Assembly: GCA_038061995.1 (NCBI GenBank)
Contig: JBBTYA010000009.1
Coordinates: 1 to 54,625, forward strand
Reading direction: 5' to 3'
DNA: 54,625 nucleotides
From: Patescibacteria group bacterium
GTDB taxonomy: Bacteria > Patescibacteriota > Minisyncoccia > 2-02-FULL-40-12 > GWA2-44-9
Shown here: piece after piece, positions 1 through 31,366 of the stretch
How the letters are laid out: each line of letters opens with the position of its first letter
How positions within the stretch are numbered: position 1 is the first letter of the stretch
Position numbers and translations under genes: made by a program
The notes under the pieces: model-generated
Database searches by the model: none
What the model was told of the DNA's origin: nothing
The model's input: the letters and a program-made list of their open reading frames with translations, nothing else

Positions 1-741
1 CAAAAAGGATTAGATACCCTTGTAGTCCACGCCCTAAACTATGCACACTAGCTATTGGGAGCATCGACCCTTCCAGTGGCGAAGCTAACGCGTTAAGTGT
101 GTCGCCTGGGAAGTACGATCGCAAGATTAAAACTCAAAGGAATAGGCGGGAACTCGCACAAGCGGTGGATCATGTGGTTCAATTCGACACAGAGCGAAAA
201 ACCTCACCAAGGCTTGACATCTAGCTGCATGCTCTGGAAACAGAGAGGCCTTCGAGGGTGCTAGACAGGTGCTGCACGGCTGTCGTCAGCTCGTCTCGTG
301 AGAGGTATCCTTAAGTGGATTAACGAGCGCAACCCCTATCGTGTGTTACAAGTGTCACACGAGACTGCTTCGGTAACGGAGAGGAAGGTGGGGATGACGT
401 CAAGTCAGCGTGGCCCTTTGATGCCTTGGGCTACACGCATGATACAATGGACGTTACAATGGGTCGCCAAGTCGCAAGACGGAGCTAATCCCATCAAAGG
501 CGTCCCCAGTTCGGATAGGAGGCTGCAACTTGCCTCCTTGAAGCCGGAATCGCTAGTAATCGCGGATCAGCACGCCGCGGTGAATACGTTCTCGAGTTTT
601 GCACTCACTGCCCGTCAACTCAAGGGAGTCGGTAATACCTGAAGACCCATAATTTCATGTGGGGCCATGGTAGGATCGATAACAGGGAGTAAGTCGTAAC
701 AAGGCAAGGGTAGCGGAAGCTGCTCTTGGATCACCTCCTTT
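1..741 (+). rRNA. rrs: 16S rRNA, 3' portion (5' part outside window)
   Basis: Conserved SSU motifs GATTAGATACCC, AAACTCAAAGGAAT, GTCGTCAGCTCGT, AAGTCGTAACAAGG and 3' GGATCACCTCCTTT (anti-SD intact). Exact 3' end is approximate. Confidence 0.98.
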
Positions 742-19253: not shown

Positions 19254-20552
19254 ATGACTAAACCTAAAAAGGCGAAATCCTACCAAGCGCCACGGGGAAT
19301 GCATGACATTCTTCCAGAAGATCAAAAATACTGGCGCTACCTCCAGAAAAAAGCTGAGTCACTCCTTGAGGACTACGGCTTTGATCGCATTGATACGCCA
19401 ATTCTTGAAGATGTTGATGTATTCCTCAAAGGAGTTGGTGACGCAACCGACATCATCTCTAAGGAGCTGTATACATTAAGCACAAAAGGAGGCGACCGTT
19501 TTGCTTTGCGCCCCGAAGGCACTGCGTCTATTGCACGAGCCTATATCGAACACGGAATGCACGTGCGTCCGCACCCACTCAAACTCTATTATTGGGGAGC
19601 TATGTTTCGCCACGATCAACCACAACGGGGTCGCTACCGTCAGTTTTTCCAATTCGGCCTTGAAACGCTCGGTGATGCATCGGAGGCTGTTGACGCGGAG
19701 CTCATTTTCGTTGGCTGGCGCTATTTAGAGAGCATTGGTCTGAAGGGTATCAACGTGCACATCAATACCATCGGTGACCACAACTGTCGCCCTGCATATA
19801 TCCGCGCGCTTCGTGATTTCTATAAGGCGCGCACAAAGAAGATTTGTGAGTCTTGTCGTGAGCGAGTAAAGGAAAACGTACTTCGCGTATTAGACTGCAA
19901 AGAGGTTGAGTGTCGCGCCATCATGCAGGAAGCCCCGCAGATCATGGATTTTCTCGACGCGGATTGTAAGAATCATTTCCGCCGCGTGATGGAATTTCTT
20001 GATGCTGCAAACGTGCCCTATGTGCTGAACCCATACTTGGTTCGCGGCTTAGATTACTATACGCGTACAGTTTTTGAGTTTATTCCAGAAGATCGCGCCG
20101 ACGGCGCTCCTGTATTAAGTGTTGGTGGCGGCGGACGCTATGACCGCCTCTTAGAGCTTCTCGGTGGCTCAAAGACGCCAGCCGCAGGACTTGCTCTTGG
20201 TCTTGATAGGATCGTTGCAGAACTCAAGGAACGAGAGATTAGTGTTCCAGATGCCGTTGCAAAGCCAAAAGTATTTTTAGTGCAACTGGGAGATGCTGCG
20301 AAGCGTAAGAGCCTGCCACTGTTTGAGGAAATCCGTCGTGCGGGCATCCGTATTAAATCATCGCTTGGACGAGATAGTGTAAAAGCGCAACTACGCATTG
20401 CGCACCGCCTTGAGGTGAAGTACGCACTTATTTTTGGGCAGAAGGAAGCACTTGATGGTACGGTGATTGTCCGTGAAATGGAGACGGGCGTACAGGAGAA
20501 TATCCCACTTGAGAAAATCGTAGATGAGCTTAAAAAGCGTTTGCGCGAATAA
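19254..20552 (+). CDS. hisS: Histidine--tRNA ligase
   Basis: PRGM.D, LRPEGTA, FRH..PQRGRYRQF, LVRGLDYY, GGGRYD. Confidence 0.97.
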   Translation: MTKPKKAKSYQAPRGMHDILPEDQKYWRYLQKKAESLLEDYGFDRIDTPILEDVDVFLKGVGDATDIISKELYTLSTKGGDRFALRPEGTASIARAYIEHGMHVRPHPLKLYYWGAMFRHDQPQRGRYRQFFQFGLETLGDASEAVDAELIFVGWRYLESIGLKGINVHINTIGDHNCRPAYIRALRDFYKARTKKICESCRERVKENVLRVLDCKEVECRAIMQEAPQIMDFLDADCKNHFRRVMEFLDAANVPYVLNPYLVRGLDYYTRTVFEFIPEDRADGAPVLSVGGGGRYDRLLELLGGSKTPAAGLALGLDRIVAELKEREISVPDAVAKPKVFLVQLGDAAKRKSLPLFEEIRRAGIRIKSSLGRDSVKAQLRIAHRLEVKYALIFGQKEALDGTVIVREMETGVQENIPLEKIVDELKKRLRE

Positions 20553-20555
20553 GAT

Positions 20556-20903
20556 ATGACCGATATATTCTGCTCTATTATCTCCGGAGAGATCCCAGCC
20601 GACGTTGTCTTTCGTGACGAAGCGGTTATTGTATTTAAAGACATCCGCCCACAAGCTCCTGTGCATCTTCTCGTGGTGCCAATACGGCACATGGAGGGCA
20701 TTGGTGATGCAGATACCGCGACACTCGGAACGCTTCTTATGGCAGCGCATCGCGTGGCGCATGAGCAGGGACTGGTCGACGGCTACCGTCTCATTGTGAA
20801 TGACGGTGAACATGGCGGAAAGATTGTGCCCCACCTACACATCCATGTGTTGGGAGGCAAACATCTTGGGCCCAAACTAGCTCAAGATTCTGAGGTGGTG
20901 TGA
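20556..20903 (+). CDS. HIT family protein
   Basis: IFC.I..GEIP, DI.PQAPVH.LV, histidine triad HLHIH. Confidence 0.95.
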   Translation: MTDIFCSIISGEIPADVVFRDEAVIVFKDIRPQAPVHLLVVPIRHMEGIGDADTATLGTLLMAAHRVAHEQGLVDGYRLIVNDGEHGGKIVPHLHIHVLGGKHLGPKLAQDSEVV

Positions 20904-20975
20904 TGTAAGCGATGCGCCGTCTTGGTATGGCTCATCGCTTGCGGCACACGCCGCAGGCAAGAAAGGAGGTCTTCT

Positions 20976-21242
20976 ATGGTTGATGTCAAACGAAAACCAA
21001 ATGAAAGTACGGGCAGCCTTCTGCGCCGCTTTTCTCGTTTCGTGCAAGTGAGTGGCGTTGTGGTAAAAGCGAAACAATCACAATTCCGAGCGAAGAAGCA
21101 GAATCTGCGTCGTATGAAAAATAGCGCCATCATGGGCGTGCATTTGAGCACGCTGCGCAAGCGTCTTGAAAAGATGGGCGTCTATTCAGATGAGCGTTTC
21201 GAAGAAGAGAAACGCAAGCTCAAGCAAACAATCAAGTTGTAA
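20976..21242 (+). CDS. rpsU: Ribosomal protein bS21 with C-terminal extension (88 aa)
   Basis: V.VKRK.NES..SLLRRF...V..SG, very basic. Conserved HIT-rpsU-yqeY-ybeY context. Confidence 0.8.
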   Translation: MVDVKRKPNESTGSLLRRFSRFVQVSGVVVKAKQSQFRAKKQNLRRMKNSAIMGVHLSTLRKRLEKMGVYSDERFEEEKRKLKQTIKL

Positions 21243-21290
21243 CGAGTGCCAGGCGCGCCATCTGGCGCGCCGCGCGCTTTCTATGAAGAT

Positions 21291-21785
21291 ATGAGTATCA
21301 CTGAACAGGGGTTGAAGGATGAGCTAAAGGCCGCGATGAAGTCGGGCGATACATTACGCCGCTCTGTTATTGGGCTTGTGATGTCTGTAGCCAAGAATCG
21401 CTCCCTGGAAAAGCGCATGAAGCTGGTAAAGGGCGGAGCAACATCAGAAGACGCTGATGCGCAGAGCGCTCTTTCAAGTGAAGAGCTTATTGATGTCGTC
21501 GCAAGCGAAGCAAAAAAACGTCGTGAATCAATCGCAACATATGAGCAGGCGGGACGTCCCGAACTGGCGCAGGCTGAAAAAGATGAGCTTGGTGTTCTGT
21601 TGGCCTTTTTGCCAGAACAAATGAGTGATGATGAACTGCGAAGCATTGTTGCTGAAGTCGTTGCGGCGGCTGGTACGGTGACAGCGAGTGATCAGGGTAA
21701 ACTGATTGGACAAGTTGTCGCCCGCACCAAGGGCCGTGCAGACGGTTCGCGAGTGAGCGCACTTGTGCGCGAAGCACTTTCTTAG
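21291..21785 (+). CDS. yqeY: GatB/YqeY domain protein
   Basis: LK.AMK.GD, KKRRESI..YE.AGR.ELA..E, FLP.QMS, KGRADG. Confidence 0.92.
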   Translation: MSITEQGLKDELKAAMKSGDTLRRSVIGLVMSVAKNRSLEKRMKLVKGGATSEDADAQSALSSEELIDVVASEAKKRRESIATYEQAGRPELAQAEKDELGVLLAFLPEQMSDDELRSIVAEVVAAAGTVTASDQGKLIGQVVARTKGRADGSRVSALVREALS

Positions 21786-21788
21786 CAC

Positions 21789-22235
21789 ATGACGCCACGC
21801 GTTGATCTTGTTTTTCGCAATGAAGCACGGGTGGTTGGTTTCCCCGCCTCTTTCTTTCAGGCGCTCATCGGACAAACGTTGAGCGCCTGTGGCGTTTCTG
21901 GGCCACGAGGAATAAGTGTGAGTTTGGTAGCGCGCGAGCGCATGCGGGTGCTAAATAAAGAGCACCGCAATGTCGATGCAGTGACCGATGTCCTCTCATT
22001 TCCCCTAGGCGATGGGCCAGAAAATGCGTATACTACACCTGTACTTGGAGATCTCTTCATGTGTGTTTCGTATATCCGGGCCGCTGCAAAAGAAAAAAAT
22101 ATCCCGATACGACGCATGCTTGCATGGGCAACTATCCACGGAACCCTTCACCTCTTGGGGTATGATCACGAGCGATCGCGCAAAGAGGCGAGCACCATGG
22201 AAGAGCTTGAAGAGCGAATTCTTACCGCACTGTAA
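21789..22235 (+). CDS. ybeY: rRNA maturation endoribonuclease YbeY
   Basis: LN..HR..D..TDVLSFP, HGTLHLLGYDHE. Confidence 0.95.
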   Translation: MTPRVDLVFRNEARVVGFPASFFQALIGQTLSACGVSGPRGISVSLVARERMRVLNKEHRNVDAVTDVLSFPLGDGPENAYTTPVLGDLFMCVSYIRAAAKEKNIPIRRMLAWATIHGTLHLLGYDHERSRKEASTMEELEERILTAL

Positions 22236-27882: not shown

Positions 27883-29427
27883 ATGCATTCTTCCGTCCGG
27901 CTTTCTTTCCTTGGCCTCAGCTTCTTGGGTGGCGTCGCTCTGGCTTCTTTTATTCCCGCAGTTTCCGCGGCATTACTCTGGGTCATTCTTCTCGGCACAG
28001 TGATACTGTGCGTTTCAGTATGGCGAGGAACGTTTGGTGATTCGCGTGAAGGTGTGCGTAGGCGCCTTGTTGGCGTGCTTATTGGTCTTTGTATATTAGC
28101 TTTTGCATCCGGCATGTGGCGCTTTGACGCAGTCGCAACTCTTCACTCGCGCCTTGCCGTGTTTGCGGATCGTCGCGCGGGAGATGCGCCAGTTTCTTTT
28201 CTTTTCCACGGCTTTGTCGACGGCGCGTTTACTTCGCGTGGCAACAACGGTTCTTTTTCATTCTATGTGACTGCGGTGCAGGTAGAAAATCGCATCGTTC
28301 CCATTCGTGAGAGAGTACTTGTGGAGACGGGCCCACTCCCTCTCTACGCCCCCGGAACACGTATGGGCGTCGAAGGAAGTGTCAGTGTTGCTGGAGAGCG
28401 TGATACATGGCTTTTGCGTGATGGCATCCGCATGAAGCTCGACGCAGGGGATATACGCACCTATGAACACGCTCCTTATGAAATAAGTACGCTCCAACGC
28501 ATTCGTATGCACATGCTTGCATCGGTGATTAGCGTGCGTAGTCTCTTTGAGCGCGCTATCCGTGCAAGCATCGGCGAACCAGCGAGTGCCCTCATTGAAG
28601 GCGTGCTCCTTGGTACGCGGCAATTTTTGCCGGACACTCTTCGCGAAGCATTCCGTGCTACGGGCATGACGCACATTCTTGCGGTGTCTGGATATAATAT
28701 TTCGGTGGTGGGCGCCGGTGTGCTCGCGTTGCTTCTCCGGTGGGTGCGTCGCCGAAGAGCTTTTTGGTTCACGCTTGGTGTGCTTGCGATCTTTACTATC
28801 ATGACAGGAGCATCGGCATCGGTGGTGCGCGCGGCAATCATGGGTGGCCTTCTTTTCTTTGCGCAAAGTTACGGGAGATTGCCCTATCTTACCAACGCAC
28901 TCATTCTGGCTGCATGTGCCATGGTGCTCGCACAGCCATTTGTGCTTCGCTATGACGTAGGATTCCAGCTCTCATTTCTCGCGGTGATCGGGCTTTCGTG
29001 GGGCGCTCCGCTTATTATGCGTTTCTTTGAAAAAACACGGATACCAGACATCGTGCGAGAACCGCTTGCGGCAACACTTGCGGCACAAATTGCCGTGCTC
29101 CCACTGATCCTTGTTGTCTTCGGCTCTTTGTCTATTGCTGCACCTCTCGCGAACATTCTCACGGTGCCAGTGGTCCCGTTTGTTATGGCAGCCGGGTTTT
29201 TTGCTGGTGTTGTTGCTCTGATCATACCCCCGCTCGCGCCCCTGGTGGGCATCCCAGCGTGGATAGGCGCCTCCTATATACTGTGGGTCATTGAGCGCAT
29301 TGCAGAGCTCCCTGGAGCGTCTGTGGGCGTTTCTCTGCCGTGGTGGGGTGGCGTAGTGCTCGCGGTAGGTATCTGGGGTGTTTGGAAATATCTTTCCCGT
29401 TTATATGCACCAGCTATTTCGTCGTGA
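27883..29427 (+). CDS. comEC: ComEC/Rec2 competence membrane domain
   Basis: GVLLG, TG.THILAVSGYN, SVVRAAIM, GFQLSF.A, AN.L.VP. Confidence 0.93.
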   Translation: MHSSVRLSFLGLSFLGGVALASFIPAVSAALLWVILLGTVILCVSVWRGTFGDSREGVRRRLVGVLIGLCILAFASGMWRFDAVATLHSRLAVFADRRAGDAPVSFLFHGFVDGAFTSRGNNGSFSFYVTAVQVENRIVPIRERVLVETGPLPLYAPGTRMGVEGSVSVAGERDTWLLRDGIRMKLDAGDIRTYEHAPYEISTLQRIRMHMLASVISVRSLFERAIRASIGEPASALIEGVLLGTRQFLPDTLREAFRATGMTHILAVSGYNISVVGAGVLALLLRWVRRRRAFWFTLGVLAIFTIMTGASASVVRAAIMGGLLFFAQSYGRLPYLTNALILAACAMVLAQPFVLRYDVGFQLSFLAVIGLSWGAPLIMRFFEKTRIPDIVREPLAATLAAQIAVLPLILVVFGSLSIAAPLANILTVPVVPFVMAAGFFAGVVALIIPPLAPLVGIPAWIGASYILWVIERIAELPGASVGVSLPWWGGVVLAVGIWGVWKYLSRLYAPAISS

Positions 29428-31075: not shown

Positions 31076-31366
31076 ATGGGAACGAGTGAAGAGAGCAGCA
31101 AGGCTGCGGTGGGCGAAGCTGTGCAGCAGGAATATCTGCGAGGCACGCGAGCATGTCAGATGGCGCGACGTGAGGAGCTGACGCTTGTGGCGCACGCGAT
31201 TTCGTGGGCCGTGGATCGTTTCGGAGAAGACGAGGATGCGGTGCTCATGCACCGTCGCATGGATGCTCTCTGGGTGATCGTCTCGCAGTGCTCGGTGACC
31301 GGAGCACAGATCCCCGGCGATCTCGTGGCACTCATCCAGAGTCGGGGTGCCAAGCGGCTCGGCTAG
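31076..31366 (+). CDS. Orphan hypothetical protein (96 aa), GC-rich, self-contained unit
   Basis: TTGTGT-17-TACTAT promoter, AAAGGAGG SD, and hairpin AGAGGGAGGTTCT/AGAACCTCCCTCT at 31372-31399. Confidence 0.7.
   Translation: MGTSEESSKAAVGEAVQQEYLRGTRACQMARREELTLVAHAISWAVDRFGEDEDAVLMHRRMDALWVIVSQCSVTGAQIPGDLVALIQSRGAKRLG

Follow-up and report, generated by a model that had tools for sequence, protein, structure and literature searches.

The extended Shine-Dalgarno (SD) sequence preceding rpsU in this Patescibacteria genome is real, strongly conserved and non-random. It repeats the pattern that is the hallmark of the Bacteroidia in a phylum unrelated to them, though the two cases clearly differ in several respects. 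An extended rpsU SD in an otherwise SD-poor genome has so far been treated as a peculiarity of that group. Here the same gene is singled out in another SD-poor phylum, one that is huge and only remotely related, and its SD is missing where the anti-SD core is mutated. This suggests that tying the synthesis of bS21 to the availability of the anti-SD is an old solution or one reached repeatedly; it also offers a second, independent test case for specialised-ribosome regulation, of relevance to those who work on specialised ribosomes or on how translation starts. The sequence comparisons give good support to an SD-anti-SD interaction on rpsU that is functional and under selection. As to its role, the preferred reading, plausible and given a probability of about 0.45, is that the SD helix and bS21 may exclude one another on the ribosome, with negative feedback of bS21 on rpsU much as in Flavobacterium.

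The rpsU leader and its product

The window, meaning the whole stretch of DNA analysed (54,625 nucleotides), belongs to a 547-kb genome, referred to below as G000, whose genes were called with a hexamer model that ignores SD sequences; the host of the rpsU locus is an ultra-small groundwater bacterium. All genes and elements given strands here are on the forward strand. The rpsU SD, AGAAAGGAGGT (20960-20970), is complementary at all 11 positions to the 3' tail of the 16S rRNA, ACCTCCTTTCT (733-743), which carries the anti-SD and is the equivalent of E. coli 1534-1544; the two strings are exact reverse complements. ACCTCCTTTCT lies at the 3' end of a partial 16S gene, for which the Rfam match stops at 741. 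Five nucleotides (CTTCT) separate the SD from the rpsU ATG at 20976, and both the coordinates and the perfect complementarity given for this element in the sequence-only reading of the window proved exact. Pairing with the 15-nt 16S tail was calculated at -19.3 kcal/mol over the whole 20-nt upstream stretch and at -17.5 kcal/mol for positions -22 to -3. None of 2,535 random intragenic windows contained a complement to the tail longer than 9 nt, a length reached in four cases, so that the 11-nt perfect complement at rpsU is far beyond chance expectation.

The leader, 72 nt from the stop codon of the upstream HIT-family gene to the rpsU ATG, is predicted to fold into two hairpins that leave the SD unpaired (minimum free energy -33.6 kcal/mol, z = -2.67; 5 of 200 shuffled sequences were equally stable), and these are the two small hairpins that had been read from the letters. 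The first (about 20911-20936) has in its loop a weak -10-like sequence, TGGTATGGC (20923-20931), recognised by eye; the second (about 20937-20958, core TGCGGC-ACAC-GCCGCA) ends 1 nt 5' of the SD and is retained in two genomes of the same genus, where a C-to-T change keeps a G-U pair and the loop is also changed. The HIT-family gene (20556-20903; Pfam HIT, E 8e-25) lies directly 5' of rpsU, and on the other side follow yqeY (21294-21785; GatB/YqeY family, Pfam YqeY, E 2e-37) and the endoribonuclease gene ybeY (21789-22235; Pfam YbeY, E 2e-33). A scan for consensus promoters and terminators around rpsU returned none of either. A GC-rich inverted repeat noticed by eye 3' of the rpsU stop, GGCGCGCC-ATCT-GGCGCGCC (21252-21271), is a possible transcript end; it has no T run, and for that reason was not scored in the terminator scan.

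The product of rpsU (20976-21242, 88 aa) is, judging by profile comparison, a divergent bS21 with a lineage-specific C-terminal helix-turn-helix (residues ~64-88). As a single sequence it falls below both curated cut-offs (PF01165, 18.8 bits with E 1.4e-3, where 27 bits are required; TIGR00030, 16.9 bits against 28.95), and in a PF01165 search of its own genome it scores 19.4 bits. The earlier identification as bS21 is upheld at the level of the ortholog profile: with a profile built from 33 orthologs, the 28 best PDB sequences were all bS21 (top 25 at E <= 0.005, best 3e-7). Searched alone against the PDB, the sequence had bS21 chains as all 21 of its best matches, at E 0.007-0.3 and co-linear with bS21 from the N-terminus. 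The ortholog profile aligns to the PDB chains over positions 1-63 only. Residues 64-88 are lineage-specific, with the consensus LEKLGKYDEETFEEEKRKLKQxLDL, and in the ortholog alignment G68 is invariant and Y70 is conserved in at least 90%; the last 25 residues carry almost no net charge (on average -0.6 in 49 orthologs). An AlphaFold (AF2) model with a pLDDT of 88 has helices at residues 12-26, 28-36, 44-67 and 72-86, the last of them coming after the conserved G68/Y70 turn; in a Foldseek search of the PDB, bS21 chains made up 10 of the 12 best matches, yet at non-significant E values (0.3-7) and TM scores of 0.4-0.65.

Likeness to the bS21 family as defined by PF01165 and TIGR00030 thus lies in an N-terminal two-thirds that is co-linear with solved chains and contains the E..LRRF.R motif, in small size and basic character (pI 10.5), and in the rpsU-yqeY-ybeY neighbourhood. 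The protein departs from the family in the replacement of the KPS/T motif and in the 25-residue C-terminal extension, to which nothing in the solved bS21 chains corresponds. G000 has a single credible bS21 copy, and full-length orthologs were found in 54 of 60 relatives. The gene order at the locus is HIT-rpsU-yqeY-ybeY; an rpsU-yqeY neighbourhood is typical of Bacillus.

PF01165 gave no match in five of five genomes of the same class, and its cut-off was passed in 78 of 121 genomes of the phylum. In an earlier survey bS21 was reported as often missing in Parcubacteria and as larger in CPR bacteria, with an anti-SD motif in 48% of Parcubacteria (Tsurumaki 2022, PMC9297842). Some of the absences reported there may be failures of detection, given that the bS21 of the present class does not reach the cut-offs of Pfam and NCBIfam.

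SD use elsewhere in the genome

The G000 genome is SD-poor. At a threshold of -10 kcal/mol, 41 of its 526 starts (7.8%) have an SD, against 4.3% of intragenic controls, and at -12 kcal/mol the figures are 4.0% and 1.2%; the whole genomes of two relatives give, at -10 kcal/mol, 5.2% of starts against 2.5% of controls and 6.0% against 2.4%. These values confirm the genome-wide rarity of SDs on which the interest of the rpsU element had been staked. About 4-8% of starts, or some 20-40 genes per genome, are SD-led, and rpsU is accordingly not the only gene able to use the anti-SD; a dG of -16 kcal/mol is reached by 4-7 genes in each genome. The string AAGGAGG-N3-9-ATG occurs 5-51 times per genome among 61 genomes of the order and 6-106 times among 121 genomes of the phylum, both being comparisons from which an SD-rich genome was absent.

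Most of the remaining starts look leaderless or coupled, and many mRNAs have the appearance of leaderless ones. A TANNNT -10-like hexamer ends 6 nt before the ATG of 46 genes in G000, against a background of about 8, and peaks at the same distance in two relatives (73 against about 17, and 72 against about 24); so sharp a peak is a signature of leaderless mRNA. About a third of the genes begin no more than 25 nt from the upstream gene. Spacers upstream of starts are G-poor and rich in T/C or A/T, and in G000 a G stands at -1 in 3-4% of coupled and leaderless-like starts, compared with 12% of the remaining starts. Translation dominated by leaderless mRNAs is known from Actinobacteria, Deinococcus and archaea, and is represented among the GeneMarkS-2 classes. 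The three genomes considered here, on sequence alone, share its hexamer peak, and are unlike it in that a very small set of extended-SD genes coexists with the leaderless-like ones. Gene finders that expect an SD are liable to misplace starts in such genomes. Four matches to GAAAGGAGG-N-ATG in G000 (C1:28928, C1:56022, C5:20485 and C10:11205) were considered as genes and rejected, since they open only frames of 60, 21, 15 and 9 codons, none of them called.

Within ORFs, AGGAGG is under-represented relative to synonymous-codon shuffles, with ratios of 0.43 in G000 (rank 53 of 3,892) and of 0.67 and 0.63 in the other two genomes. Its reverse complement is depleted to the same or a greater degree in two of the three, and the signal there is not strand-specific. 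The avoidance of AGGAGG on the sense strand in G000 hints at an anti-SD that is accessible.

Among ribosomal-protein genes, rpsU is the only one with an SD. None of the 22 others in the window (20 named by Pfam, uS14 and uL15 by eye) has a placed SD: dG ranges from +1.1 to -5.6, except for uL24, which reaches -9.6 but owes this to an AGGAGC 16 nt from the ATG, too distant to serve. Sixteen further genes outside the window likewise lack an SD, with dG of -0.3 to -5.3 where computed; of these, bS6 was named by Pfam and its upstream sequence judged by eye, with no dG, and the others are presumably ribosomal-protein genes, recognised by eye by their N-terminal motifs. Both rpsR and rpsF are without an SD. 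The strings upstream of uS7, uS19 and uL14 lack GGAGG and are as quoted in the sequence-only reading, whose statement that rpsU alone has an SD holds for ribosomal-protein genes and fails for the window as a whole, where the gene at 17199-17879 and an ORF at 31076 (SD AAAGGAGG) also have one.

The first of these exceptions is the more telling. In three-way reciprocal-best-hit groups drawn up between G000, a genome of the same family (G014) and a genome of another family (G044), only 2 of 299 groups have an SD at -10 kcal/mol in each of the three. One is rpsU; the other is the gene at 17199-17879, which encodes a 226-aa membrane protein with two MS_channel_1st_1 TM-helix repeats (Pfam E 4e-17). 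The SD of the latter, AGAAAGGGGGTG (17183-17194), pairs over 12 nt with one G-U, stops 4 nt short of the ATG at 17199 and has a dG of -19.1. It was found in 28 of 29 loci when the start was taken as the one with the best SD within 20 codons, with N-termini in agreement, and in 6 of 6 further genomes of two other families; the gene is present in 42 of 61 genomes, usually 3-4 kb from rpsU. On these comparisons its SD is as well conserved as that of rpsU, and its length is even greater. Ranked by dG, rpsU comes fifth of the 526 genes, below the DUF378 gene, the 17199-17879 gene, HU and the DUF218 gene, so that a high rank is borne out but not the top one, nor a place as the sole strong-SD gene. 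The SD of the DUF378 gene is present in some genomes only, and the other SD-led genes of a given genome mostly lack an ortholog in G000. HU was considered as a third conserved SD gene and rejected, its long SD being found in G000 and G044 and absent in G014.

These genes bring in a reading without feedback, nearly as likely as the one in which bS21 limits its own synthesis: the rpsU SD would be a plain strong ribosome-binding site, the few genes with 5' leaders needing a long SD to recruit the 30S subunit, and rpsU and the membrane-protein gene being two such monocistronic, leadered genes. It accounts readily for a core gene unrelated to the ribosome having an SD of the same kind and conservation, and for the long SDs of HU, DUF378 and many accessory genes; rpsU's own hairpins and the GC-rich repeat after its stop would also fit a separate transcript. 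What it leaves unexplained is that rpsU, one of some 40 ribosomal-protein genes and 300 core genes here, should have been singled out in two unrelated SD-poor lineages; in addition, the HU SD is not conserved, whereas that of rpsU persists across the phylum.

Conservation of the rpsU SD and its joint loss with the anti-SD

The strong SDs that had been anticipated on the rpsU genes of relatives were found. At the level of the order, 43 of 49 loci have one (dG <= -12.7). In the window's own family the count is 31 of 32 loci, the exception being G010, whose SD, following an 11-nt duplication, is weak; two further families have strong SDs in 6 of 8 and 6 of 7 loci, and a fourth (f2) in none of 7. 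All 35 further species of a named collection have an rpsU SD at <= -11, and in other Patescibacteria families 18 of 29 loci reach -12 and 21 of 29 reach -10. This last set comprises 29 of 30 fetched loci, from 99 PF01165-positive genomes among 121 sampled, with the anti-SD assumed canonical and starts picked by distance from the HMM start; ORFs neighbouring the 30 loci reach -12 in 2 of 66 cases at the first start, or in 4 of 66 at the best start within 30 codons. That selection keeps the rpsU SD across the order and most of the phylum is well supported. In several of the phylum-level misses a GGAGGTG-like motif can be made out by eye 17-30 nt upstream, separated from the start by a small hairpin.

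Another possibility, and a very improbable one, is that the SD-like element serves mainly to stabilise the 5' end of the mRNA, a 30S subunit bound near that end shielding the transcript. The STAB-SD elements of Bacillus are 5' mRNA stabilisers that act through 30S binding. About 16 of 78 rpsU orthologs have a good -10 box 10-14 nt 5' of the GGAGG core, from which the transcript would start at the SD; in other orthologs a hairpin lies directly 5' of the SD, and the mean fold z-score for the 40 nt upstream is -1.2. The distance between SD and ATG is, however, conserved at 5-8 nt, which is a requirement of a translational SD. Stabilisation of the mRNA and initiation of translation are not mutually exclusive.

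The 16S tail could be located in 37 of the 61 genomes of the order, and is canonical (CACCTCCT) in 33 of the 37, which share the window's tail GGATCACCTCCT. Where a canonical tail and an rpsU locus are both available (31 genomes), 29 genomes have a strong rpsU SD, one a weak one and one (G056) none; among the four genomes with a mutated anti-SD core (CCUAU, CUUAC twice and CCUUC), none has an rpsU SD. The altered tails are CACCTATT in G037, CACTTACT in G046 and G051, and CACCTTCT in G059. The membrane-protein gene has no SD in G051 or in 4 of 4 genomes of the f2 family, and keeps it in G059, where a single C-to-U change still permits G-U pairing. The association of SD loss with anti-SD loss represents at most three independent events and is suggestive rather than statistical; it shows that both SDs act through the anti-SD. 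It also fits a plain ribosome-binding site: any SD-dependent gene would be expected to lack its SD where the core is non-canonical, as both genes do in f2 and G051. The C-terminal extension of bS21, by comparison, is equally conserved in the f2 family, where neither the anti-SD core nor the rpsU SD is found, so that it would not be retained only to clamp the anti-SD. Of the earlier proposal that the lengthened C-terminus is a candidate clamp, the extension itself is real; clamping as the sole reason for its retention finds no support.

Possible feedback by bS21 and relation to the Bacteroidia

Autoregulation of rpsU by way of bS21-free ribosomes is known from F. johnsoniae and other Bacteroidia (Jha 2020, PMC7797042; McNutt 2023, PMC9976891; Arpin 2026, PMC13000457). 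In F. johnsoniae, ribosomes without bS21 translate rpsU better, feedback has been demonstrated, and rpsU is typically the only strong-SD gene (PMC9976891); in a 2026 structure the extended SD helix clashes sterically with the helix at the bS21 C-terminus, so that the two exclude each other (PMC13000457). In the present lineage, translation of rpsU by classical pairing of its 11-nt SD with the last 11 nt of the 16S rRNA is well supported, the SD lying in a predicted unpaired stretch just 3' of a hairpin. As to why this gene in particular has kept its SD, an arrangement similar to that of F. johnsoniae can be proposed, in which the reason would be the position of bS21 next to the anti-SD on the platform of the 30S subunit. 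An SD/anti-SD helix of 11-13 bp and the C-terminal helix of bS21 would be mutually exclusive, as in F. johnsoniae, with the enlarged C-terminal helix-turn-helix as the putative clashing part. The subunits best able to translate rpsU would then be those without bS21, and the protein would thereby limit its own synthesis. Feedback of this kind is compatible with a ribosome that is not blind to all SDs.

This logic of mutual exclusion and feedback is favoured by the SD's use of the same 1534-1544 stretch together with the longer C-terminus of bS21. On the other side of the account have been placed the membrane-protein gene with its equally strong SD, and the SDs of HU and DUF378 in some genomes; the few per cent of other starts that are SD-led; the persistence of the bS21 extension in lineages with a non-canonical anti-SD and an SD-less rpsU; the avoidance of AGGAGG in G000 ORFs, non-specific in the two other genomes; and the two exceptional relatives, G056 with a canonical anti-SD and no rpsU SD, and G010 with a weak SD.

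The genome here is SD-poor and retains a canonical anti-SD, as in F. johnsoniae; the extended rpsU SD pairs with 16S 1534-1544 in both (11 bp here, 13 bp there) and is conserved across both lineages; SD and anti-SD change together, by complementary change in Bacteroidia and by joint loss here; and the C-terminal part of bS21 is helical (a prediction in the present case) and, so far as a region that does not align to known bS21 can be compared, less basic at its end. Apart from belonging to a different phylum, the present system is unlike that of F. johnsoniae in that rpsU is not the sole SD-led gene, the membrane-protein gene being equally conserved in this respect; in that SD-less genes are leaderless or coupled with G-poor spacers, where Bacteroidia show an adenine pattern; and in that bS21, known here from its sequence, has 88 aa and a helix-turn-helix, compared with 64 codons there.

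One further possibility is full sequestration of the Bacteroidia type: the 16S tail would be held in a pocket formed by bS21, bS18 and bS6, mature ribosomes would be blind to SDs, and SD-led genes would be read only by bS21-free ribosomes. This is unlikely for the present lineage. The pocket signature in Bacteroidia consists of F50, N56, Q58 and K-R37 in bS18 and of W100, R103 and K107 in the C-terminal helix of bS6. The bS18 found here has 70 aa, and the bS6 tail (~30 residues) is without tryptophan. The scarcity of SDs despite a retained anti-SD, and the extended SD of rpsU, are what such a pocket would lead one to expect, and the nearly neutral end of bS21 with its conserved Tyr70 brings to mind Bacteroidia bS21, in which the C-terminal domain is less basic and Tyr54 is a signature residue (PMC7797042), though in a region that does not align to known bS21. 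The pocket is harder to reconcile with several conserved SD-led genes, HU among them in two of three genomes, with SD-less rpsR and rpsF, with AGGAGG avoidance on the sense strand of G000 ORFs, or with an upstream context that is G-poor and T/C- or A/T-rich, as against the adenine pattern of Bacteroidia (PMC13000457).

The suggestion in the sequence-only reading of an equivalent anti-SD-occlusion circuit thus keeps its parallel with Flavobacteria as regards pattern. Its strict form is weakened because a second core SD gene and 4-8% of SD-led starts indicate ribosomes that are not obviously SD-blind, because the C-terminal extension persists without an anti-SD core, and because the bS6 tail has no tryptophan. 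A wider combination, on the doubtful side, is that Patescibacteria would have, independently of the Bacteroidia, a small "extended-SD regulon" comprising rpsU, the mechanosensitive-channel-like membrane protein and sometimes HU and DUF378, and read only by 30S subunits lacking bS21: the C-terminal helix-turn-helix would be a gate that clashes with the 11-12-bp helix, bS21 occupancy would set both its own synthesis and that of stress-linked genes, and the whole circuit would be discarded upon loss of the anti-SD.

No publication linking rpsU or bS21 with the SD in Patescibacteria was found. Neither Patescibacteria nor CPR bacteria are mentioned in the F. johnsoniae papers searched for these names or in a 2024 survey; genomes from outside the Bacteroidia may figure in the supplementary tables of McNutt 2023 and Jha 2020. 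In Francisella tularensis, a gammaproteobacterium that uses SDs and has three bS21 paralogs, the leader of a bS21 mRNA (bS21-2) mediates repression by bS21, and the control is exerted on the abundance and stability of the mRNA (PMC13374519). The likeness to the present case is that the control site, as proposed here, would be the bS21 mRNA's own leader; unlike here, no extended SD is implicated in the abstract of that paper. The F. tularensis example indicates that control of bS21 through its own leader is not confined to the Bacteroidia.

Shine-Dalgarno-led frames beyond rpsU

Perfect GAAAGGAGG-N-ATG sites elsewhere in the window's own genome include two on the reverse strand of contig C1, at 28928-28943 and 56022-56039, preceding frames of 60 and 21 codons respectively, and one on the forward strand of contig C5, at 20485-20499, preceding a frame of 15 codons; none of these frames was called by the gene model used. 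The site before the 60-codon frame resembles that of rpsU in having a GC hairpin immediately 5' of the Shine-Dalgarno (SD) sequence. The SD-led membrane-protein gene (window 17199-17879) lies 3-4 kb from rpsU on one contig in at least 15 relatives.

Variant rpsU starts

Two relatives have unusual rpsU genes. In G001, of the same genus, an in-frame TGA replaces the invariant Arg6 at codon 6 of the gene (locus L002, C10:22161-22424); possible explanations are a sequencing error, a strain-level pseudogene, and recoding. In G010 (locus L021, contig C4, immediately upstream of 22386), the start carries an 11-nt tandem duplication (aggtatttatg, twice), as a result of which the strong SD now precedes an out-of-frame ATG.

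Elsewhere in the phylum, inspection by eye of five rpsU loci from other Patescibacteria (L278, L280, L284, L287, and L288) found an SD-like motif and the ATG separated by 17-30 nt that include a short palindrome. This arrangement could be a split ribosome-binding site whose parts are joined by a hairpin.

Leaderless starts, operon spacers, and avoided hexamers

Across the whole genomes of the window's own organism, a member of the same family (G014), and a member of another family (G044), approximately one-fifth of genes have a -10-like hexamer ending exactly 6 nt before the ATG, a position suggesting that leaderless mRNAs are widespread in all three. Operon-internal ribosomal-protein genes are preceded by a TAA stop and then a T/C-rich spacer of about 10 nt. 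Within coding regions, depletion relative to synonymous shuffles is strongest in G014 and G044 for CTGAG/CTCAG words, and in the window's own genome for a set of hexamers that includes TTGACA, TGTAAT, GCTAAT, and words containing TAA. Internal promoters and restriction sites may be avoided in this way.

rRNA genes

The 16S (window 1-741) and 23S (52093-54625) genes are on the same strand, but are unlinked, since the 51 kb separating them in the window holds approximately 55 protein-coding and three tRNA genes. In a fourth family of the order, the 16S gene is interrupted near its 3' end by an intervening sequence roughly 0.9 kb long (L255 from G037, L256 from G046). In both genomes the insertion point is between AAGTCGT and AACAAGG, and the 16S tail 3' of the intervening sequence has lost its CCUCC core.
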